A DNA stretch of 40,199 bases, taken from IMG/VR virus record IMGVR_UViG_2681813201_000021. One strand, given 5' to 3'. Positions 8,401-19,139 of this stretch are shown piece after piece. The notes under the pieces were generated by a model. That model saw nothing but the letters and a program-made list of their open reading frames with translations. It searched no databases and had not been told where the DNA came from. Every line of letters starts with the position of its first letter. The stretch's first letter is position 1. This stretch comes from a virus (taxonomy: Duplodnaviria > Heunggongvirae > Uroviricota > Caudoviricetes). A program made the position numbers and the translations under genes.

Positions 8401-8889
8401 ATGAGTCTTTTGAATGAAGTTCAGAAATTCATTGAAGCCCATCCGGGCTGTACTTCCGGAGATATTGCGGATGCTTTTGCAGGTTACTCACGGCAGCGCG
8501 TTCTGCAGTCAGCAAGCAAGTTACGTCAGAGTGGGCGTGTGGCTCACCGTTGTGAAGGGGATACACGCAGACATTTCCCGCGCCTGACTGAGAGAGCGCA
8601 GGAGCCGGAACCACAACCAGTTCGTGAAACCAGACCTGTGCGCAATTTCTATGTCGGCACTAACGATCCACGGGTGATTTTGTGCCTGACCCGCCAGGCT
8701 GAAGAACTGGAGTCCAGGGGCCTATACCGTCGTGCTGCAACGGTGTGGATGGCGGCATTCCGTGAAAGCCACTCCCAGCCAGAACGAAACAATTTTCTGG
8801 CGCGTCGTGAGCAGTGCTTACAGAAAAGCAGCAAGCGCGCTGCATCGGGTGAAGAGTGGTATCTGTCAGGGAATTACGTGGGGGCTTAA
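8401..8889 (+). CDS. Hypothetical regulator (PerC-like C-terminal segment, tentative)
   Basis: ATG 8401 with RBS AGGGGGTG; LESRGLYRRAATVWMAAF segment resembles PerC-family proteins (recollection only). Confidence 0.35.
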   Translation: MSLLNEVQKFIEAHPGCTSGDIADAFAGYSRQRVLQSASKLRQSGRVAHRCEGDTRRHFPRLTERAQEPEPQPVRETRPVRNFYVGTNDPRVILCLTRQAEELESRGLYRRAATVWMAAFRESHSQPERNNFLARREQCLQKSSKRAASGEEWYLSGNYVGA

Positions 8890-9542
8890 TGAGTAATAAA
8901 TATTGCCAGGCGCTGGTGGAACTGCGGAACAAACCAGCCCATGAACTGAAGGAAGTGGGCGATCAGTGGCGCACGCCGGACAACATTTTCTGGGGAATTA
9001 ACACCCTGTTTGGCCCGTTTGTTCTGGATCTGTTCACTGACGGTGATAACGCCAAATGTGCTGCGTATTACACGGCGGAAGACAACGCGCTGGCGCATGA
9101 CTGGTCAGAACGTCTTGCGGAGCTAAAAGGTGCTGCCTTTGGTAATCCCCCATACAGCCGCGCCAGTCAGCATGAGGGGCAATACATCACCGGCATGCGT
9201 TACATCATGAAACATGCCAGTGCCATGCGTGATAAGGGCGGGCGCTATGTTTTCCTGATCAAAGCTGCCACCAGCGAATTGTGGTGGCCGGAAGATGCAG
9301 ATCATATTGCTTTTATTCGCGGGCGTATTGGTTTTGAACTGCCTGCCTGGTTTATCCCGAAGGATGAGAAGCAGGTGCCGACAGGCGCTTTCTTCGCTGG
9401 TGCTATTGCTGTTTTCGACAAGACCTGGAAGGGACCGGCAATCAGCTACATCGGGCGCGATGAACTTGAGGCATGTGGTGAGGCGTTTCTGGAGCAGGTT
9501 CGTCAGCAGGCGGAAAAACTGGTCAGGGAGATGGCGGCATGA
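8889..9542 (+). CDS. Phage DNA N6-adenine methyltransferase (Dam-like)
   Basis: NPPY catalytic motif (GNPPYSRA); start ATG 8889 overlaps upstream stop (TAATG). Confidence 0.8.
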   Translation: MSNKYCQALVELRNKPAHELKEVGDQWRTPDNIFWGINTLFGPFVLDLFTDGDNAKCAAYYTAEDNALAHDWSERLAELKGAAFGNPPYSRASQHEGQYITGMRYIMKHASAMRDKGGRYVFLIKAATSELWWPEDADHIAFIRGRIGFELPAWFIPKDEKQVPTGAFFAGAIAVFDKTWKGPAISYIGRDELEACGEAFLEQVRQQAEKLVREMAA

Positions 9543-9865
9543 CGACGTTAACTCAATGCCAGCAGCAGGTGCTGGATATGCTGATTTCTTATCAGAAAGA
9601 ACGTGGTTTCCCGCCAACCAATCAGGAGGTGGCAACCATGCTGGGATACCGTTCGGTGAATGCAGCGGTGGAGCATCTTCGTGCGCTGGAGAAAAAAGGC
9701 GTCATCACGATAAAGCGTGGCGTGGCCCGGGGGATAACGCTTCATACCGCGGTGAAGGACGACGACAGCGAGGCGGTCGGGATTATCCGCTCACTGCTTG
9801 CCGGTGAGGAAAACGCCAGGCTGCGTGCAGCCCACTGGTTACATGAGAGGGGCCTGAAAGTATGA
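9539..9865 (+). CDS. LexA N-terminal DNA-binding-domain protein lacking the peptidase domain
   Basis: 108 aa; QQQVLDMLISYQKERGFPPTNQEVATMLGYRSVNAAVEHLRALEKKGVI matches the LexA winged-helix pattern; no Ser/Lys S24 domain follows. Confidence 0.7.
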   Translation: MTTLTQCQQQVLDMLISYQKERGFPPTNQEVATMLGYRSVNAAVEHLRALEKKGVITIKRGVARGITLHTAVKDDDSEAVGIIRSLLAGEENARLRAAHWLHERGLKV

Positions 9866-10251
9866 AGCTGATTCTGCCTTTTCCGCCCAGCGTGAACACG
9901 TACTGGCGACACCCCAACAAAGGGGCGTTTGCTGGTAAGAGCCTGATAAGCGCGGCGGGGCGAAAATTCCAGAGTGCGGCGTGCGCAGCAATAGTTGAGC
10001 AGCTACGTCGTCTGCCGAAACCAACGTCGGCACCTGCTTCAGTGGAGATCGTGTTGTTTCCTCCGGATAACCGGATCCGCGATCTGGACAACTATAACAA
10101 GGCGCTGTTTGACGCCCTGACCCACGCGGGGGTGTGGGAAGACGACAGTCAGGTGAAAAGAATGCTGGTGGAGTGGGGACCGGTTATCCCGGAAGGGAAG
10201 GTCGAGATCACTATCAGTAAGTACGAGAAAACGGCGGGTGCAGCTGGCTGA
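9862..10251 (+). CDS. rusA: RusA Holliday-junction resolvase
   Basis: 129 aa; LPFPPSVNTYWRH ... RDLDNYNKALFDALTHAGVWEDDSQV matches RusA catalytic core. Confidence 0.9.
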   Translation: MKLILPFPPSVNTYWRHPNKGAFAGKSLISAAGRKFQSAACAAIVEQLRRLPKPTSAPASVEIVLFPPDNRIRDLDNYNKALFDALTHAGVWEDDSQVKRMLVEWGPVIPEGKVEITISKYEKTAGAAG

Positions 10252-10270
10252 GCAAAAGGAGAAACGAAGT

Positions 10271-11080
10271 ATGAATAATCTGATGGTCATTGATGGTATT
10301 GAAGTTCGTCGTGATGCTTATGGGCGTTACAGCCTGAACGATCTGCATCGCGCAGCAGTAGCATCTGGTGCAAATGCCAGAACCAAGGAGCCAGGAAAGT
10401 TTCTTTCCAGCCAACAAACTGTTGAACTTGTTCATGAATTGACCAACACCCAGAATTTGGGTGTTGACCCGGTGAGTGTGATTCATGGGGGAAATGAACG
10501 GGGAACTTATGTCTGCAAGGAACTGGTGTATGCCTATGCAATGTGGATCAGCCCGTCATTCCATCTGAAGGTGATCCGTACTTTCGATATGGTAACCAGC
10601 GCACCGGAAAAATTATCCGGGCAGGCTGCTGACAAGATGCAGGCTGGAGTGATTCTGCTGGACTTTATGCGCAGGGAGTTAAACCTGTCTAACTCTTCAG
10701 TGCTTGGGGCCTGTCAGAAACTCCAGGAGGCTGTTGGCTTACCGAATCTGGCACCGCGCTATGCCATTGATGCTCCTGCTGACGCGCCTGATGGCTCAAG
10801 CCGCCCCACGCTGTCACTGAGTGCATTGCTGAAGCAGTATGGTATCCGCCTGACAGCTAATCAGGCATATCACCAGATGGTGAAGCTGGGGATCGTCGAG
10901 CAGCGCGAACGATACAGCCGTACCGCGATTAACAACATCAAAAAATTCTGGTCACTGACAGCGAAAGGCTGCATGTTCGGCAAGAACATCACCAGTCCCG
11001 CAAATCCGCGCGAGACGCAGCCGCATTTCTTCGAATCCCGATTCCCTGAGCTGTTAAAGCTGCTCGATACCGTACATTGA
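10271..11080 (+). CDS. KilA-N domain protein / putative antirepressor
   Basis: RBS AAGGAGA before ATG 10271; N-terminal KilA-N-like region; C-terminal part unassigned. Confidence 0.6.
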   Translation: MNNLMVIDGIEVRRDAYGRYSLNDLHRAAVASGANARTKEPGKFLSSQQTVELVHELTNTQNLGVDPVSVIHGGNERGTYVCKELVYAYAMWISPSFHLKVIRTFDMVTSAPEKLSGQAADKMQAGVILLDFMRRELNLSNSSVLGACQKLQEAVGLPNLAPRYAIDAPADAPDGSSRPTLSLSALLKQYGIRLTANQAYHQMVKLGIVEQRERYSRTAINNIKKFWSLTAKGCMFGKNITSPANPRETQPHFFESRFPELLKLLDTVH

Positions 11081-11081
11081 G

Positions 11082-12077
11082 GTGACCGTGAGAGCACTAC
11101 TGACCCCTGAAATTGCCCCGCGTATGGGGATCGTATTGTTCAGACCAGGTTCAGAGCTGATGCCCCTGTTTATGCAGGGGCGTGTCCTGCTGGAGCCTGA
11201 GCCGGAACGTTATTCATCTTTCGCCAGTGGTGCCGTTCCGGCGGCATCACAACCGCTGGCGGATGATCCTACCGTTCGGGCCGTGTTCCGCAATGAGGCA
11301 GTGATCCGTCGTGCTGGTGGCGTGGAATGTCTTGAAAGCTGGTTACTTCGTGAAAAAGGCTGCCAGTGGCCTCATTCCGACTGGCACAGCGAGAACATGA
11401 CCACAATGCGACACGCTCCGGGTGCAATCCGTCTGTGCTGGCACTGCGATAACCAGCTGCGCGATCAGTTCACGGAACGGCTGGAATCAATGGCAACGGA
11501 TAACTGTGCCCGCTGGGTGTTGTCTGTTGTGCGTCGGGATCTCGGTTTTGATGACAGTCACGTTGTGACAATGCCGGAACTGTGCTGGTGGCTGATTCGT
11601 AATGACCTGGCGGATGCCTTACCGGAAAGTGCAGCCCGTAAGGCACTGAGATTACCGAAGCCTGTTGTGCCGTCTGTCACCCGGGAAAGTGACCTTGTGC
11701 CTTCGGTTCCTGCCACCAGCATCATCCAGGATAAGGCGAAAAAGGTGCTGGCGCTGAAAGTGGATCCGGAGTCGCCGGAGTCTTTTATGTTACGCCCAAA
11801 ACGTCGCCGCTGGGTTAATGAAAAGTACACGCGCTGGGTTAAGACACAGCCGTGTGCATGTTGTGGAAAGCCCGCTGATGATCCCCACCACCTGATAGGT
11901 TACGGTCAGGGTGGAATGGGAACAAAAGCGCATGACCTTTTTGTGTTGCCTTTGTGCAGAAAGCATCACGACGAGCTGCATGCGGATACCGTGGTATTTG
12001 AAGAAAAGTATGGCTCTCAGTTGGAGCTGATATTTCGTTTTATCGATCGTGCGCTGGCAATTGGCGTGCTGGCCTGA
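11082..12077 (+). CDS. DUF968-like phage protein with C-terminal HNH-like Cys/His motif
   Basis: 331 aa; C-terminus CACCGKPADDPHHLIGYG...CRKHHDELH; start uncertain (GTG at 11082). Confidence 0.55.
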   Translation: MTVRALLTPEIAPRMGIVLFRPGSELMPLFMQGRVLLEPEPERYSSFASGAVPAASQPLADDPTVRAVFRNEAVIRRAGGVECLESWLLREKGCQWPHSDWHSENMTTMRHAPGAIRLCWHCDNQLRDQFTERLESMATDNCARWVLSVVRRDLGFDDSHVVTMPELCWWLIRNDLADALPESAARKALRLPKPVVPSVTRESDLVPSVPATSIIQDKAKKVLALKVDPESPESFMLRPKRRRWVNEKYTRWVKTQPCACCGKPADDPHHLIGYGQGGMGTKAHDLFVLPLCRKHHDELHADTVVFEEKYGSQLELIFRFIDRALAIGVLA

Positions 12078-12095
12078 TTTTTGTGGGGTAAGTTG

Positions 12096-12440
12096 ATGCG
12101 TGATATGTATGAAGTATTGGACCGCTGGGGAGCATGGGCTGCAGCAGACAACAGTGGTGTGGACTGGCAGCCGGTAGCAGCAGGCTTCAAGGGGCTTTTA
12201 CCTCATGGCAAAAAGTCACGGATTCAGTGTGATGATGACGAAGGCATTATGATAGACAGTTGTGTGGCTCGGTTGAGAAAGTATAAACCAGAGGAATATG
12301 AGCTCATCATAGCCCACTTTGTTATTGGTATCTCATTACGCACTATTGCCAAAAGGAGAAGGTGCTCTGATGGCACTATTAGGAAGGAGTTGCAAACCGC
12401 AATCGGTTTTATAGAGGGGGTTGTAAGTATACTTGTGTAA
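12096..12440 (+). CDS. Putative late-gene regulator in Q position (C-terminal HTH, sigma-70 region-4-like)
   Basis: Last regulatory ORF before the late region; C-terminal ISLRTIAKRRRCSDGTIRKEL helix-turn-helix; start at ATG 12096. Confidence 0.4.
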   Translation: MRDMYEVLDRWGAWAAADNSGVDWQPVAAGFKGLLPHGKKSRIQCDDDEGIMIDSCVARLRKYKPEEYELIIAHFVIGISLRTIAKRRRCSDGTIRKELQTAIGFIEGVVSILV

Positions 12441-12467
12441 AATAATAAAAGGCGGTAGTACCGCCTT
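12438..12467 (-). terminator. Rho-independent terminator of the minus-strand three-gene operon (also ends the plus-strand Q-like gene)
   Basis: Stem AAGGCGG / CCGCCTT with 5-nt loop (12449-12467); on the minus strand it is followed by UUAUUAUUUUA. Confidence 0.65.
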
Positions 12468-13080
12468 AATGATCGAATCGTTGTATGTTTTCATGGAATC
12501 TACAAAAGTGAATAGATATTTTGAATAGTAAAATGTAGAAACCAACTTGACTTAAAGTTATGGCTTTGCATTTATCATTCAAGAGTTTTTGTAATTCTTC
12601 CGTTGGTAATTGGTATACATCATCAAGAAAAACGATGCATTCTTCTAAGTTGTCTGATTCAGGAAGATAAAAAATATTAGTAATTAACTGCTTCCTTATA
12701 GCATCAATTTTGCTATCTATTGAAGTCTTAGAAACTCCGTTGGAGAGAAGAATAGCTTCGAACTTAGATAAACTTACTAACGGAGCAAAGACTGCACGCA
12801 TTGGCACATCACGATTATTACTTGTATCTATATCGCAACTGTTGCTTAATATAATGCCTCGTGTTTTTTTAGTCCCTTTAATTGAATATACTGTAAGCTC
12901 CTTAAATATATCTCCCTGAAGTGCAGCATTTTTCAGATCATCATGATAATTGCTAAGGTAGTAGTTAGTGTTTTCAGGGAAATCTCTAAGTGCATTTATT
13001 AGCCCTTCTTTTTGATGAGCTGTTAAATAATATGGAATTTGATCTTTGAATTTCTCGATATCAAAAATGTTATTACTCAT
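12466..13080 (-). CDS. Hypothetical protein C of AT-rich operon (204 aa)
   Basis: ATG 13080 lies one codon after the stop of gene B in the same frame; low GC; no recognisable catalytic motif. Confidence 0.6.
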   Translation of the reverse strand: MSNNIFDIEKFKDQIPYYLTAHQKEGLINALRDFPENTNYYLSNYHDDLKNAALQGDIFKELTVYSIKGTKKTRGIILSNSCDIDTSNNRDVPMRAVFAPLVSLSKFEAILLSNGVSKTSIDSKIDAIRKQLITNIFYLPESDNLEECIVFLDDVYQLPTEELQKLLNDKCKAITLSQVGFYILLFKISIHFCRFHENIQRFDH

Positions 13081-13083
13081 CAC

Positions 13084-13428
13084 TTAATCCAAGTATAAAT
13101 CCCACAGTGAAGCATGAACGACTTTATTTATTTCACTGCCTAAAGACACCTGGTTTGTCGATAATTTTTCATAAAAGTTTGTCATCGAGACTGCAAGTCT
13201 TTGATCAACTGAGATTGTGCTCCCTGCTTTATATGTTTGTGTGATGGAATGAACTGAATCGGTAGTTGAAGACTTATACTCCAAAGCGTGATTTTTGACG
13301 ATTAAACTTTGTTGAGGACCATGCTGTTGATTTTGGGCAATGTCTGTTAATGCAGTTATATGCAGACCATATAAAACCAAAGTTAATACTTGAAGTTGAG
13401 CTCGATAAACATGATGAGACGGATACAT
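13084..13428 (-). CDS. Hypothetical protein B of AT-rich operon (114 aa)
   Basis: ATG 13428 preceded by GGTGG RBS, 15 nt after stop of gene A; no recognisable motif. Confidence 0.55.
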   Translation of the reverse strand: MYPSHHVYRAQLQVLTLVLYGLHITALTDIAQNQQHGPQQSLIVKNHALEYKSSTTDSVHSITQTYKAGSTISVDQRLAVSMTNFYEKLSTNQVSLGSEINKVVHASLWDLYLD

Positions 13429-13443
13429 ATCATACCACCATTT

Positions 13444-14193
13444 CTATTTGTAGGATGGTTCTAGTTCTTGAATTGTTGACTCTTTAAGGCAACTAAAGAA
13501 AGCTAATTTATTACAGGAGTGAAGATCATCAAGAATTTTTTTTGGTTCGTTTTTAAACTTATCTATTTCATCAGTATTAGTGATTTGCCTAATGCTGTCT
13601 ATGTCTAGGATTAGTCCTTTTTTATTAAATTCTCCATTATCTGACATGACTAAAGCATGAGATAATATTTGAATTATATTTAGAAATGCGCCTTCATTTT
13701 TATCGATTCTGATATTGATCGGATAATTAGACATAGACTCGCCAGCCATATTTAAGCTGACGTTTAGCTTATCAAATAAATTAGAATCGTCTTCTTTTGG
13801 GAAAAAATCTACATACTTTAATGAGTAGCGGATGATGTTGTCATTTAAATTTAATTTGTTAAGCTCATTTAATACATGAATGATTTTTTCTCTAAAATGA
13901 CTCCACCCTTGATATTTGGTGCTGGTGGATACAACAACACCATGGTCACTTAGTCCAATATAGTACCCTTCGATTTCGAGGCGACTGACAACTGCGTAAT
14001 GTAATTGTTCATCTCCCTCACGAACATTTTTAGGTATTTGACTGGGTGGTAAACTAATTACTGGTTTTGTACAACCTAGAGCGTGAAAAAGAAACCCTGG
14101 AACTATTTCCGATATTTGTGTTTCTTTAGAAAAACGCATTTCGAAAGCAGCTTCGATTACTGGTTGTTTTGATAGAGATGTTGGAATGAGCAT
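13444..14193 (-). CDS. Hypothetical protein A of AT-rich operon (249 aa)
   Basis: First gene of the operon; N-terminal PVIEAAFEMRF recalls an uncharacterised family (possibly TIGR04255-like; recollection, unverified). Confidence 0.6.
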   Translation of the reverse strand: MLIPTSLSKQPVIEAAFEMRFSKETQISEIVPGFLFHALGCTKPVISLPPSQIPKNVREGDEQLHYAVVSRLEIEGYYIGLSDHGVVVSTSTKYQGWSHFREKIIHVLNELNKLNLNDNIIRYSLKYVDFFPKEDDSNLFDKLNVSLNMAGESMSNYPINIRIDKNEGAFLNIIQILSHALVMSDNGEFNKKGLILDIDSIRQITNTDEIDKFKNEPKKILDDLHSCNKLAFFSCLKESTIQELEPSYK

Positions 14194-14420
14194 TTAAAAC
14201 CCATAGTATGTTTTATGAGCTGATTGGATTTTGAGCATAGCTACCGCACGAATCTTCGAGGAAGATCCAAACATGTGCCTAATGTCGCATCATGCTCAAG
14301 GCGGCATAAATTTTGTTTACTGAGTATAAGATTAACAACCATTAACTTCCATCAAAAATGCTAACGCGTACGCAAAAACTATTGTATCGTGTTAAGAGTG
14401 GTCACTTCGCCACACAGCTT

Positions 14421-14451
14421 AAACCCGCCGTCGAGCGGGTTTGTCGTTTCT
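14421..14451 (+). terminator. Hairpin terminator in late leader region (tR'-like)
   Basis: Stem AAACCCGC / GCGGGTTT, loop CGTCGA, tail GTCGTTTCT; sits between the Q-like gene region and the holin. Confidence 0.5.
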
Positions 14452-14593
14452 GGCCCCGGCTATTTGTTGAGCCTGGTCTATACCGCAGTTATCCATTGGC
14501 TCGGCCTCTTTTACGTTTCCGCTTCTGATTTGCGGTACATGATGTTCCCTCAATTTGCACCTCCTGTATTGGCGAGGTGAGAGATAACTACAA

Positions 14594-14920
14594 ATGCCTC
14601 ATAACCCAAATACCTGGCTGGAGTTGGTCCAGAGCTGGTGGCGTGGAGACACACCGCTGGGCGCAGTGATTATGTCGATTGTTATGGCTGGTTTACGTAT
14701 TGCCTATTTTGGCGGTGGTGGCGGCTGGAAGCGAAAAACACTCGAAATTCTACTCTGTGGCGCTCTGACGCTGACTTTTGCATCCGCTCTTGAGTATGTC
14801 GGATGGCCTAAATCACTATCTGTTGCCATTGGTGGTGGGGTGGGGCTGATCGGTGTCGATGCTATTCGTGGGGCTGCAATGCGAGTAATCGGTAACAAAT
14901 TTGGTGGCTCTAAGGAGTAA
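14594..14920 (+). CDS. Holin
   Basis: 108 aa with hydrophobic transmembrane segments and charged C-terminus, immediately upstream of the endolysin; RBS GAGGTGAGAG. Confidence 0.7.
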   Translation: MPHNPNTWLELVQSWWRGDTPLGAVIMSIVMAGLRIAYFGGGGGWKRKTLEILLCGALTLTFASALEYVGWPKSLSVAIGGGVGLIGVDAIRGAAMRVIGNKFGGSKE

Positions 14921-14923
14921 TTT

Positions 14924-15400
14924 ATGCAGGTACTAAATTCCCAGCGTAAAGCTTTCCTCGATATGGTGGCTTGGTCAGAAGGAACGGATAACGGACGACA
15001 ACCGACACGTAACCACGGTTATGACGTTATTGTTGGTGGTGAACTCTTCACTGATTACTCCGATCACCCTCGCAAACTTGTCACGCTAAACCCGAAACTC
15101 AAGTCAACAGCCGCCGGACGTTACCAGCTTCTTTCACGCTGGTGGGATGCTTACCGTAAACAGCTTGGCCTGAAAGATTTTTCTCCAGAAAGCCAGGACG
15201 TTGTAGCTCTGCAGCAGATTAAAGAGTGTGGCGCTTTACCGATGATTGACCGCGGCAATATTCGTCAGGCAATCGACCGTTGCAGCAATATCTGGGCGTC
15301 ATTACCTGGTGCAGGTTACGGTCAGTATGAACATAAAATCGGTGACCTGATTGCACGGTTTGAAGAGGCTGGTGGGGTGATAAATGAAGTTGAGCTATAA
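14924..15400 (+). CDS. R: Endolysin, lambda R-like lytic transglycosylase
   Basis: 158 aa; QRKAFLDMVAWSEGTDNGRQ...HGYDVIVGGELFTDYSDHPRKLV closely follows the lambda R sequence as recalled; RBS AAGGAG. Confidence 0.9.
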   Translation: MQVLNSQRKAFLDMVAWSEGTDNGRQPTRNHGYDVIVGGELFTDYSDHPRKLVTLNPKLKSTAAGRYQLLSRWWDAYRKQLGLKDFSPESQDVVALQQIKECGALPMIDRGNIRQAIDRCSNIWASLPGAGYGQYEHKIGDLIARFEEAGGVINEVEL

Positions 15401-15776
15401 GCTGGTTATCGCTGCTTTCTTCGTTACTGTCATTGGTTCTTTCATCTGGTCAGCCAACCACTACTACAGCAAATATCAGTACGAAAAGAAACGTGCTGAT
15501 GAGTCTGTACGAAATGCTGGATCAGCAATGGCCATTACCAATAACGTCCTGCAATCACTGCAAATCGTCAATACAGTTCTGGAGGCTAACCAGCATGCAA
15601 AACAGCAGATCGCACTGGAGTCACAGAGAGCCCAGGAAGATATCAAAATGGCCGTTGCGGATGATGATTGTGCTTCACGTCTTGTGCCTGCTGCCGCTGC
15701 TGAGCGGTTGCGGAAGTACGCGGACAGTTTACGTGAACACTCCGACGGCACCACTGCCAGCCAGCCTGACGGTTGA
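15384..15776 (+). CDS. Rz-like inner-membrane spanin (i-spanin)
   Basis: N-terminal transmembrane helix then charged coiled-coil-like region; overlaps endolysin 3' end; position after R. Confidence 0.7.
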   Translation: MKLSYKLVIAAFFVTVIGSFIWSANHYYSKYQYEKKRADESVRNAGSAMAITNNVLQSLQIVNTVLEANQHAKQQIALESQRAQEDIKMAVADDDCASRLVPAAAAERLRKYADSLREHSDGTTASQPDG

Positions 15777-15930
15777 AACCCCTCAGCCTGATTTACCTGA
15801 TCATTTTACGTGGGGCTCGAGCTTAGATCTGAATGCCGCCTTGTTGTCTGCATTGGCGCAGTGTAATACCGATAAAGCTGACATCAGAAGGATTGAAGTT
15901 GAGCGTGGTCACATCATGCAAAAAAAATGA
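15661..15930 (+). CDS. Rz1-like outer-membrane lipoprotein spanin (o-spanin), overlapped architecture
   Basis: Alternative frame starting inside Rz; signal peptide with lipobox LLSGC then Pro-rich segment; extends past the Rz stop. Confidence 0.55.
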   Translation: MMIVLHVLCLLPLLSGCGSTRTVYVNTPTAPLPASLTVETPQPDLPDHFTWGSSLDLNAALLSALAQCNTDKADIRRIEVERGHIMQKK

Positions 15931-16022
15931 TGTTCACTTTATTTTGTTCCTTGATTTGATATGTGATGACCCAATAGATACAAAGCACCTGATTTGGGTG
16001 ATTTTTTTGAAGGACTATACAC

Positions 16023-16343
16023 ATGAAAGACGGCATTTATTTTGTTGTGTTCAGAAGCGGTCATAATGATGTTGGCAATGGCACGGTCGTTGTGAAGGAT
16101 AATGCGGTTAATGGTGGTGATTTTGGGTTTACCTATCAGGGGCGTGTACAAGATGGGGTATTGAAACTTCATGTATCCCGCCACAACCCTTCAGCACAAA
16201 ACGTTATTGCAGGCCTTAACGATTATGTGATGGATCTCTCAGTGAGAGATATTGGGGATGGTTATTACCTTGAAGGTGGAATTGCTGGTGTTCCTGGTGC
16301 GACTCTGTCTGTACAGGCGAAATTTATCGGCAATTTGATTTAA
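16023..16343 (+). CDS. Hypothetical protein (moron after lysis cassette)
   Basis: 106 aa; RBS AAGGA; AT-rich upstream region; followed by its own terminator. Confidence 0.5.
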   Translation: MKDGIYFVVFRSGHNDVGNGTVVVKDNAVNGGDFGFTYQGRVQDGVLKLHVSRHNPSAQNVIAGLNDYVMDLSVRDIGDGYYLEGGIAGVPGATLSVQAKFIGNLI

Positions 16344-16357
16344 ATCGATTCTCTCCT

Positions 16358-16388
16358 AAACCGCCCACTTTCCACGGGCGGTTTTTTG
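16358..16388 (+). terminator. Rho-independent terminator
   Basis: Stem AAACCGCCC / GGGCGGTTT with 9-nt loop then TTTTG. Confidence 0.8.
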
Positions 16389-16438
16389 TTGCCATTACGA
16401 TGGGTAGACCAGTAGTAATGATTGAAGGAGAAATTTAA

Positions 16439-16789
16439 ATGCCCCCACGAACCCCAAAAGCCTGCCGTGTTCGCGGCTGCCGCCATACCACCACTGACCC
16501 GTCAGGCTATTGCGAAAGCCACAAAAGCGAAGGCTGGAAGCAATACAAACCTGGACAATCCCGTCATCAGCGCGGCTACGGTTCGAAGTGGGACAGTATC
16601 CGCGCGCGTGTCCTGAAGCGTGACAAAGGCCTGTGTCAGTTATGTCTGCGTGCCGGTGTGGTGCGTGAGGCGAAAACTGTTGACCACATCATCCCTAAAG
16701 CGCATGGCGGCACTGATGCTGACAGTAATCTGCAGAGTCTGTGCTGGCCGTGTCATAAGGCGAAGACGGCCCGTGAACGGTTAAAGTGA
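16439..16789 (+). CDS. HNH endonuclease (terminase-associated)
   Basis: 116 aa; Cys-rich N-terminus and DHIIPKAHGG...N...CWPCH HNH motif; sits upstream of terminase as in HK97-type packaging modules; RBS GAAGGAGA. Confidence 0.85.
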   Translation: MPPRTPKACRVRGCRHTTTDPSGYCESHKSEGWKQYKPGQSRHQRGYGSKWDSIRARVLKRDKGLCQLCLRAGVVREAKTVDHIIPKAHGGTDADSNLQSLCWPCHKAKTARERLK

Positions 16790-16815
16790 TAATAATTCTC
16801 AACTGTCTGAGGGGA

Positions 16816-16876
16816 GGGGCGGGTCAAATCCCTGTGACCTGACGTCTTCCGGACTGCCCGCCCCATCGTTTTTTTA
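16816..16876 (+). other. GC-rich inverted repeat GGGGCGGG...CCCGCCCC with T-run; candidate cos region and/or terminator
   Basis: Arms at 16816-16823 and 16857-16864, then ATCGTTTTTTTAT; located between HNH and terminase small subunit. Confidence 0.4.
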
Positions 16877-16914
16877 TACCCGCGAAAAATGAAATTTAAC
16901 CAGGAGTGCCGCAT

Positions 16915-17409
16915 ATGGCTGGAACGGCGGGGCGTTCCGGGCGTCGCCCCAAGCCAACGGCGCGCAAGGCGCTGGCCGGAAACCCCGGCAAGCGAGCCCT
17001 GAATAAAGATGAACCTGTTTTTACGCCCATCAAAGGTGTTGAGCCACCGGAGTGGTTCGCTGAAGAAGATCTCCCTCTCGCTACGATCATGTGGCAACTG
17101 ACAACTAAAGAACTCTGCGGTCAGGGCCTGCTGTGCGTGACTGACCTCGCGGTGCTTGAGCGGTGGTGCGTGGCCTACGAGTTCTGGCGACGTGCCGTGA
17201 AAAATATTGCCAGACAGGGCAACACCATCACCGGTGCAATGGGCGGTATGGTCAAAAATCCGGAGCTGACCGCCAAAAAAGAACAGGAGTCCGAGATGAG
17301 CAGTACGGGGGCAATGCTCGGACTCGACCCCAGCAGCCGCCAGCGTCTGATTGGCCTGGCGGGGCAGAAGAAAGCCACTAACCCGTTTCTGAAAATCATC
17401 GAATCATGA
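16915..17409 (+). CDS. Terminase small subunit
   Basis: Basic N-terminus; immediately upstream of and overlapping terminase large subunit; RBS CAGGAG 8 nt before ATG 16915. Confidence 0.8.
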
Positions 17410-19139
17410 GCCGGAAATCTTACCCCAACGTAAATGCTGCCAATCAGTATGCCCGTGATGTCGTGCGCGGAAAGATTGTGGCCTGCCAGTTTGTGATTCA
17501 GGCCTGCCAGCGCCATCTTGATGACCTGATGGCGGAAAAAAGTAAGTCGTTTCGTTACCGCTTCGACAAGGACCTGGCTGAACGGGCCGCGAAATTTATT
17601 CAGCTGTTGCCACACACCAAGGGGGAGTGGGCATTCAAGAGGATGCCCATCACGCTGGAACCGTGGCAGCTCTTTGTGATCTGCTGTGCGTTTGGCTGGG
17701 TCAATAAAGGCTCCCGGCTGCGCCGCTTCAGGGAGGTGTATACCGAAATCCCCCGTAAGAACGGCAAATCGGCAATCTCTGCCGGTGTTGCCCTGTATTG
17801 TTTTGCCTGTGATAACGAGTTTGGCGCGGAAGTGTATTCCGGTGCCACGACAGAGAAACAGGCGTGGGAAGTCTTTCGCCCGGCGCGACTGATGTGTAAA
17901 CGCACACCCATGCTGACGGAAGCGTTCGGGATTGAGGTTAACGCCTCAAACATGAACCGTCCGGAGGATGGCGCGCGGTTTGAACCGCTGATCGGTAACC
18001 CCGGTGATGGTTCATCACCCCACTGTGCCGTGGTGGATGAATATCACGAGCACGCCACCGATGCGCTTTATACCACGATGCTTACCGGGATGGGCGCGCG
18101 ACGTCAGCCACTGATGTGGGCCATCACCACCGCCGGGTACAACATTGAGGGGCCGTGCTACGACAAGCGGCGGGAAGTTATCGAGATGCTCAACGGTTCG
18201 GTACCCAACGATGAACTGTTCGGGATCATCTATACCGTTGACGAAGGCGATGACTGGACCGACCCGCAGGTGCTGGAAAAAGCTAACCCGAATATTGGCG
18301 TGTCGGTTTATCGCGAATTTTTGTTAAGTCAGCAGCAGCGTGCGAAAAATAACGCCCGTCTGGCAAACGTCTTTAAAACAAAACACCTCAATATCTGGGT
18401 GTCGGCGCGTTCGGCGTATTTCAACCTGGTGAGCTGGCAGAGCTGCGAGGATAAATCACTGACCCTTGAGCAGTTCGAGGGGCAACCGTGCATTCTGGCC
18501 TTTGACCTGGCGCGTAAGCTGGATATGAACAGCATGGCGCGACTTTATACCCGCGAGATTGACGGTAAAACGCATTACTACAGTGTGGCTCCGCGCTTCT
18601 GGGTACCGTATGACACGGTGTACAGCGTCGAGAAAAATGAAGATCGCCGGACAGCCGAACGCTTTCAGAAATGGGTGGAAATGGGCGTTCTGACCGTTAC
18701 CGATGGTGCGGAGGTGGATTATCGCTACATCCTCGAGGAGGCCAAAGCGGCGAACAAAATCAGCCCGGTCAGTGAGTCACCCATCGACCCCTTCGGGGCG
18801 ACCGGGTTGTCACATGACCTTGCTGATGAAGACCTGAATCCCGTCACTATCATTCAGAACTACACCAACATGTCCGACCCGATGAAAGAGCTGGAAGCGG
18901 CAATTGAATCGGGGCGCTTTCATCATGATGGCAATCCCATCATGACCTGGTGTATCGGCAATGTGGTCGGCAAAACCATTCCGGGTAACGATGATGTGGT
19001 GAAACCCGTCAAAGAGCAGGCGGAAAACAAAATTGACGGTGCAGTTGCGCTGATTATGGCGGTTGGCAGAGCCATGCTGTACGAGAAAGAAGACACGCTG
19101 TCTGACCACATTGAGTCCTATGGGATCCGCTCGCTTTAA
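17406..19139 (+). CDS. Terminase large subunit
   Basis: 577 aa; N-terminal ATPase region and C-terminal nuclease region, typical length and position. Confidence 0.95.

Follow-up and report, generated by a model that had tools for sequence, protein, structure and literature searches.

The 40,199-nt stretch of viral DNA analyzed here (hereinafter the window) contains a 125-nt spacer that separates a gene for an HNH endonuclease from the small terminase gene terS, both of which lie on the + strand. Pfam matches and open reading frames together give the order HNH, terS, terL, portal and S78 prohead protease on one strand, and the positions of these genes and of the features of the spacer are collected in Table 1. 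In translation, the HNH protein carries an N-terminal zinc-ribbon motif (CRVRGC...CESH), CxxxxC...CxxH, in addition to a CxxC...HNH...CxxCH core. Its closest solved relative in a PDB profile search is the HNH protein of phage GVE2 (5H0M, E = 3e-12, full length), and BLASTP aligns it with HK97 gp74 at 38% identity over 65 aa (E = 8e-11). The protein is nearer to the zinc-ribbon type represented by 5H0M than to gp74 and, judged from its sequence, appears to be a nickase of the terminase-associated type. In 77 of 83 related loci, terS has an HNH homologue upstream of it on the same strand; of the six exceptions, three are truncated by a contig or record end. The TerS protein is 99.4% identical to that of SfIV and 100% identical to that of phage vB_EcoM-689R6, and TerL matches the HK97 TerL structure 6Z6D (E = 4.1e-25, residues 112-556).

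Table 1 The HNH-terS spacer, its sequence features and the neighboring genes, in window coordinates
Feature	Position	Strand	Basis or remark
HNH endonuclease, 116 aa	16439..16789	+	Pfam PF01844, E = 2e-16
Palindrome TGATAATAATTCTCA (7-N-7), Fur-box-like	16787..16801		Overlaps the HNH stop codons, just 5′ of the G-box
HNH-terS spacer, 125 nt	16790..16914		
G-box GGGGAGGGGCGGG + TCAAATC (whole block GGGGAGGGGCGGGTCAAATC)	16811..16830		Conserved in about 80 loci; includes the left dyad arm
Left dyad arm GGGGCGGG	16816..16823		
GAC directly 5′ of the overhang	16852..16854		Forms AC-Y-G together with 16855-16856
Bottom-strand cut (putative)	between 16854 and 16855		Carried over from SfI
cosN cohesive-end 10-mer TGCCCGCCCC	16855..16864	+	Identity to the SfI virion-end 10-mer
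Right dyad arm CCCGCCCC	16857..16864		
Top-strand cut (putative)	between 16864 and 16865		Carried over from SfI
T7 run	16869..16875		
Right-hand block TTTTTTTATACCCGCGAAAAATGAAATTTAA	16869..16899		+5 to +35 from the top-strand cut; T-run, ACCCGCGAAA, more A/T tracts
Small terminase TerS, P27 family (Terminase_4), 164 aa, basic N-terminal arm	16915..17409	+	Pfam PF05119, E = 2e-21
Large terminase TerL, ATPase and nuclease domains, HK97-like	17406..19139	+	Pfam PF03354 and PF20441
Portal	from 19333	+	Pfam
S78 prohead protease	from 20516	+	Pfam

Positions 1-16847 of the window are colinear with phage SfV through the integrase, early genes, lysis genes and HNH gene; to the right of the spacer, the window is again colinear with SfV from terS on, and colinearity with SfV and SfI reaches the tail genes. 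The right part of the window aligns with the first 17.2 kb of SfI and SfII at about 98% identity (98.2% for SfI), and the DNA around the spacer is 97-99.7% identical to SfI, SfII, SfIV and SfV. These comparisons identify the window as an integrated temperate prophage of the SfV/SfI/SfII/SfIV kind, with the prophage order permuted in such a way that the spacer comes to lie mid-window. Of 5426 complete E. coli genomes, 1162 (about one in five) contain the same 125 nt, which carry no annotated feature in the five complete E. coli genomes among the matches listed. Many such prophages are cryptic and the window itself contains no proof of inducibility, as would be expected if the prophage were a defective remnant with a relic packaging site that is never cut. 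This is unlikely, given that every packaging ORF checked is intact and nearly the same as its counterpart in plaque-forming phages, that colinearity with SfV and SfI begins at int and reaches the tail genes, and that the conserved blocks of the spacer carry no substitutions relative to functional SfV, bar one or two spacer bases.

Between its lysis and HNH genes, the window contains an extra segment of about 0.5 kb compared with the SfV/SfI group, comprising an ORF and a terminator. The ORF (106 aa, 16023-16343) scores 24.1 bits for Pfam GrlR, below the cut-off of 26.8, and a classical terminator hairpin, CCGCCC-N9-GGGCGG followed by T6, lies 3′ of it at approximately 16361-16389. Because in SfV the HNH gene comes only 27 nt after Rz1, the segment 16023-16390 looks like a moron inserted between the lysis and HNH genes.

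The initial annotation had proposed a candidate cos site between the HNH and terS genes, and the spacer bears this out, since the 10-mer that forms the cohesive ends of SfI is found there with near-identical proteins and flanks. The 10-mer, TGCCCGCCCC, occurs once in the 40-kb window and consists of the right arm of a GC-rich dyad (described below) and the preceding TG. In SfI, run-off sequencing of virion DNA is reported to have found the 10 nt 5′-TGCCCGCCCC-3′ missing from both termini as compared with the prophage (Sun et al. 2013, PMC3636060). The SfI GenBank record agrees with this, its last bases being ...GGACTGCCCGCCCC and its first base matching window position 16865. The 10-mer and its left flank are identical in the window and SfI, and the spacers differ elsewhere by a few substitutions, such as C in the window and T in SfI at 16831 and A in the window and G in SfI at 16865. 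On the strength of this published end mapping on a near-identical phage, the segment between the HNH and terS genes very probably holds a cos site with the cut positions of SfI virions, which would place the left end of the virion genome at 16865 and a 10-nt overhang at 16855-16864. With the 10-mer, flanks and proteins all matching, the site belongs among the cos sites of the SfV/SfI group, whose cut positions have been mapped in SfI; as the same 125 nt recur across E. coli genomes, the finding is correct yet already known.

The SfI run-off reads leave a gap between them rather than an overlap, which implies recessed 5′ ends and therefore 3′ overhangs. This polarity agrees with the 10-nt 3′ overhangs at the ends of HK97 DNA (PMC9410871, PMC11331095), and 3′-protruding overhangs of 10 nt are accordingly the likely configuration, if slightly less secure than the location of the site. 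The spacer could also be a cos site that is cut differently from SfI, for example with ends between 16847 and 16848 or with a 5′-protruding overhang, and the GenBank records appear to favor this, as their starts within the same spacer disagree (window 16790 for SfII, 16848 for SfV and SfIV, 16865 for SfI and 16900 for ST64B), and one base differs between the SfI and SfV cos fragments according to Sun et al. (PMC3636060). We consider such a difference very unlikely. The SfV start lies 7 nt further left, and the SfV cos is described by Sun et al. as only 'postulated'; the SfII, SfIV and SfI authors state that prophage-derived sequence was linearized by convention (PMC3636060; for SfIV, Jakhetia et al. 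2013, PMC3851460). Among the records and passages covered, direct end sequencing is reported for SfI only, Allison et al. 2002 (SfV) lying outside this comparison. As only the SfI start matches a mapped end, GenBank record starts are unreliable evidence of termini in the SfV/SfI group. The identity of the 10-mer and left flank to SfI, the invariant GAC/AC-Y-G boundary described below and the end of the HK97 record all agree with the SfI positions.

To assess conservation, relatives were collected by tblastn of phage records and by a contig scan of one genome per species with TerS alignment. The genome scan yielded 80 loci with TerS identities from 99% down to 48%, in Enterobacterales, Xenorhabdus, Gilliamella, Pseudomonas, Burkholderia and Comamonas. 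A scan of viral contigs with TerS returned only copies that were 99-100% identical, and conservation was therefore taken from the genome scan instead. When the spacers are anchored on CGCGAAA, the rest aligns almost without gaps, giving an alignment of 67 sequences (A2).

Three blocks of primary sequence recur at fixed, ungapped spacing in about 80 loci (TerS 99% to 48% identical). The first consists in the relatives of the G-box and TCAAATC or a near variant. The second is GAC with the C-rich 10-mer that follows it (window 16852-16864), in which A16853, C16854 and G16856 are invariant in all 67 sequences; at position 16855, 43 sequences have C and 23 have T. No other part of the spacer is conserved as strongly as the third, the right-hand block; within it, CCGCGAAA is nearly invariant from Enterobacterales to Pseudomonas, Burkholderia and Moraxella, and the T-run keeps a constant distance from ACCCGCGAAA even where the stem of the dyad is missing, as in HK97, Burkholderia and Psychrobacter. 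A motif of the form GAC-N10-N4-T-run-ACCCGCGAAA would mark cos in many prophages, as an aid to locating phage ends and cos-dependent mobilization.

Some related loci depart from this arrangement. In three loci of Phytopseudomonas and Pseudomonas sp. PA15 (L144-L146), GACCGCC lies about 8 nt farther from the ACCCGCGAAA block, with a G-rich GAACGACGGGGGGAGCC in between, and the 1.2 kb upstream contain no HNH homologue; these loci represent a variant cos layout. In Vibrio phage H2 (L089, KY658673), the 6 nt between the HNH end and the TerS start hold no cos blocks, so that cos must lie elsewhere in this branch of phages with P27-family TerS.

The GC-rich dyad followed by a T-run that had first drawn attention to the spacer is present as described, as a perfect 8/8 inverted repeat with its arms 33 nt apart and a run of seven T 4 nt past the right arm. 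When the 125-nt spacer is shuffled 2000 times with its dinucleotides preserved, 141 of the shuffles also contain a perfect inverted repeat 8 nt or longer with a gap of 3-60 nt. All-G/C 8-mer dyads are rare, with two in the 40-kb window, and the stability of the fold is ordinary compared with shuffles (z = -0.87 as RNA and -1.6 as DNA). Across the 67 sequences of A2, standard pairs fill 68.5% of the cells of the dyad columns, compared with 71.4% when the 3′ letters are shuffled among sequences; all 500 of 500 shuffles pair at least as well as the observed alignment, and sliding the partner by -2 columns gives 75%. RNAalifold finds no consensus structure in the 67 relatives (-0.37 kcal/mol). The left box lacks the C of the window in Citrobacter, Kluyvera, Burkholderia, Psychrobacter and HK97, which breaks the stem in those relatives. 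The complementarity of the arms is incidental, a by-product of a G-rich box opposite a C-rich cosN, and there is no functional hairpin.

It had been suggested that the dyad and T-run may be cosN/cosB rather than just a terminator. This holds in so far as the DNA is cos DNA and the right arm falls within the SfI 10-mer; it fails for the dyad as a unit, since the left arm belongs to the separate G-box and pairing is not kept. The T-run likewise turns out to be part of the conserved right-hand block and not the tail of a terminator. A Rho-independent terminator of the lysis/HNH transcript, with cos elsewhere or incidental, would draw on the perfect 8-bp G/C stem that the MFE fold closes, on the T7 within 4 nt of it and on the several Rho-independent terminators predicted on the map of SfIV by its authors (PMC3851460), yet it is extremely unlikely, because there is no small loop between arms that far apart, the stem is separated from the T-run by 4 nt, a consensus terminator scan makes no call at the dyad, the stability is ordinary, pairing in the relatives falls below column shuffles with no consensus fold, the T-run is kept as DNA in HK97, Burkholderia and Psychrobacter where the stem is absent, and the terminase genes downstream must be co-transcribed late. 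A known RNA family was also considered and discarded: an Rfam scan of 16200-17100 finds nothing in the spacer, and its one hit, a chance match to NsiR4 (E = 0.1) at 16346-16384, falls on the genuine terminator that follows the 106-aa ORF. As for direct repeats, the spacer has just short two-copy chance matches, with no R-site-like repeats. The dyad itself is weak, and the weight of the cos reading of the spacer is carried by the relatives and by the published end mapping.

Immediately upstream of the G-box, a palindrome extends over the end of the HNH gene. Among 82 related loci, 31 match its form TGAGAATnATTCTCA at 11 or more of the 14 positions, as do none of 405 control pieces, which were taken from TerL-side DNA downstream of the anchor. 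In the window, 13 of the 14 positions of the palindrome agree with the Fur core TGATAATnATTATCA; the corresponding place in HK97 reads CAAATGAGAATGAATCGCATCA, and near-perfect Fur boxes are found there in Enterobacter soli (L106) and Rosenbergiella (L115). The palindrome may be an optional fourth element of cos and is a candidate site for a host factor or for terminase. In three Burkholderia loci (L149, L176 and L087) and one Pseudomonas locus (L160), a long hairpin whose perfectly paired arms measure 10-14 nt, for example CCCGCCCGGCG-GATG-CGCCGGGCGGG, ends exactly at the start of the G-box; it occupies the position of the enterobacterial palindrome with a different sequence.

Salmonella phage F1055 (L094 and L179, OP745618) differs from the window in one half of cos. 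Its left half is identical to the window at 50 of 54 positions and its HNH gene is close to that of the window, as opposed to 25 of 50 identical positions in the right half and amino acid identities of 32% for TerS and 58% for TerL. The right half thus tracks TerS, since F1055 and HK97 change both while the left half stays. F1055 is a natural mosaic with its junction at cosN, which suggests that modules recombine with cos itself as their boundary.

We propose the right-hand block as a candidate TerS recognition site, similar to cosB. In HK97, TerS binds +15 to +29, CTAACCCGATTTTTT, which comprises ACCCG and an A/T tract, as established by EMSA and cryo-EM (Chechik et al. 2024, PMC11331095); the window reads ACCCGCGAAAAA at +14 to +25. 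No relationship between the two small terminases was detected: BLASTP of the window TerS against HK97 gp1 gives E = 7 and hhalign a probability of 0.2%, HK97 gp1 falls outside Pfam Terminase_4, a PDB profile search yields no link between TerS and gp1, and Foldseek of a monomeric AF2 model of TerS (pLDDT 79) against the PDB returns nothing with E < 2. With all of these links negative, the grounds for the TerS site are co-variation with TerS type and analogy, and the analogy is correspondingly weak because TerS is unrelated to gp1 and its fold has no match in the PDB.

Taken together, the blocks can be arranged into a mechanism of cleavage. The concatemer would be cut with a 10-nt stagger at TGCCCGCCCC, leaving complementary 10-nt 3′ overhangs, and the terS side would become the left, first-packaged genome end. 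The zinc-ribbon HNH protein would make the bottom-strand nick, at the invariant AC^YG (AC^TG in the window, or 5′-CA^GT-3′ on that strand), and the TerL nuclease would nick the top strand 10 nt further on. TerS would dock on the T-run/ACCCGCGAAA block from +5 to +35 and thereby position the complex, and the G-box/TCAAATC, 28 nt before GAC, would provide a further element for recognition on the HNH/TerL side. The division of labor in this scheme, with HNH nicking the bottom strand, TerL nicking the top strand and TerS binding the right half, is in our estimate as probable as its opposite.

The proposal of HNH as the bottom-strand nickase follows from the invariance of AC-Y-G and from the behavior of related zinc-ribbon HNH proteins. 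Terminase-linked zinc-ribbon HNH nickases, including those of GVE2 (N.phiE2) and N.phiGamma, nick CG^GT, on the strand opposite AC^CG (Xu & Gupta 2013, PMC3592412), and a nickase engineered by fusing Zif268 to N.phiGamma has been seen to cut CA^GT off target (PMC3592412). These nickases share with the HNH protein of the window their size, the zinc ribbon and HNH layout and the place beside cos/terS, and differ in coming from Gram-positive phages and in their site, ACCG as opposed to ACTG in the window. In vitro, HK97 gp74 and Skunavirus HrdP act as non-specific nucleases when purified on their own, so sequence-specific nicking by the HNH protein of the window is not assured. That one nick is made by HNH and the other by TerL is an idea already published (PMC11331095), of which the correspondence between AC-Y-G and the HNH type would be a specific refinement.

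More broadly, and tentatively, Proteobacterial phages with HNH-dependent cos sites, HK97 included, might share a rigid cos of about 115 bp that is composed of an optional Fur-box-like palindrome, the G-box/TCAAATC, 28 nt, the invariant AC^YG, a 10-nt overhang and a module specific to the type of TerS. In such a cos, HNH would be a sequence-specific nickase of the bottom strand and TerL the nickase of the top strand, the HNH/TerL side would read the G-box as a new cosQ-like element, and the palindrome would possibly be a site for a host factor (Fur). We hold this possible, at rather less than an even chance. A shared cos layout of this kind was not found described in the literature covered, outside of which lie Kala et al. 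2014 (HK97 gp74) and Allison et al. 2002 (SfV genome), and a literature search by sequence strings returned unrelated papers only. The multi-block architecture and the correspondence between AC-Y-G and HNH may be a useful generalization, and the comparative layout bears on HNH-dependent packaging in general, namely on which nuclease cuts which strand and on what HNH recognizes.

Among known systems, SfI, SfV, SfII and SfIV are the nearest, sharing with the window TGCCCGCCCC, the order HNH-cos-terS-terL, near-identical flanks and a TerS that is 99-100% identical. The cos site of phage lambda (cosQ-cosN-cosB) has 12-nt 5′ overhangs, works with a small terminase of the gpNu1 type, involves no HNH protein and receives both nicks from gpA. 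Its logic is nonetheless shared by the window: a staggered nick site, a small-terminase site on the packaged side and an auxiliary element on the other side. The sequences are unrelated, and the window differs from lambda in having an HNH protein, a 10-nt overhang and a TerS for which Terminase_4 is the only Pfam family reported. A cos of the lambda type is ruled out for the window by the Terminase_4 TerS, the presence of HNH and the 10-nt overhang known from SfI.

In HK97, cos cleavage is carried out by an HNH (gp74)-dependent terminase (Fung et al. 2022, PMC9410871; Chechik et al. 2024, PMC11331095). The initial annotation had likened the gene order to HK97-type cos packaging modules, a likeness that extends to TerL, HNH and the left half of cos and stops at TerS. 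The HK97 record ends in GGGCAGGGGGGGGGATCAAATC-N21-GAC-CGCCGCCAAA, and TCAAATC is 28 nt from GAC in HK97 and the window alike; the 10 nt that follow GAC and close the HK97 record, CGCCGCCAAA, align with TGCCCGCCCC of the window. HK97 and the window therefore have in common a TerL homologue, an upstream HNH homologue and a left half made up of a G-run, TCAAATC, 28 nt, GAC and a C-rich 10-mer, although gp74 lacks the N-terminal zinc ribbon. Both right halves start with A/T tracts around ACCCG, but they differ in sequence and register, with ACCCG at +14 in the window and +18 in HK97, and the small terminases belong to different families, Terminase_4/P27 in the window and that of gp1 in HK97. By analogy, and TerS apart, the site between the HNH and terS genes would work like the HNH-dependent cos system of HK97.
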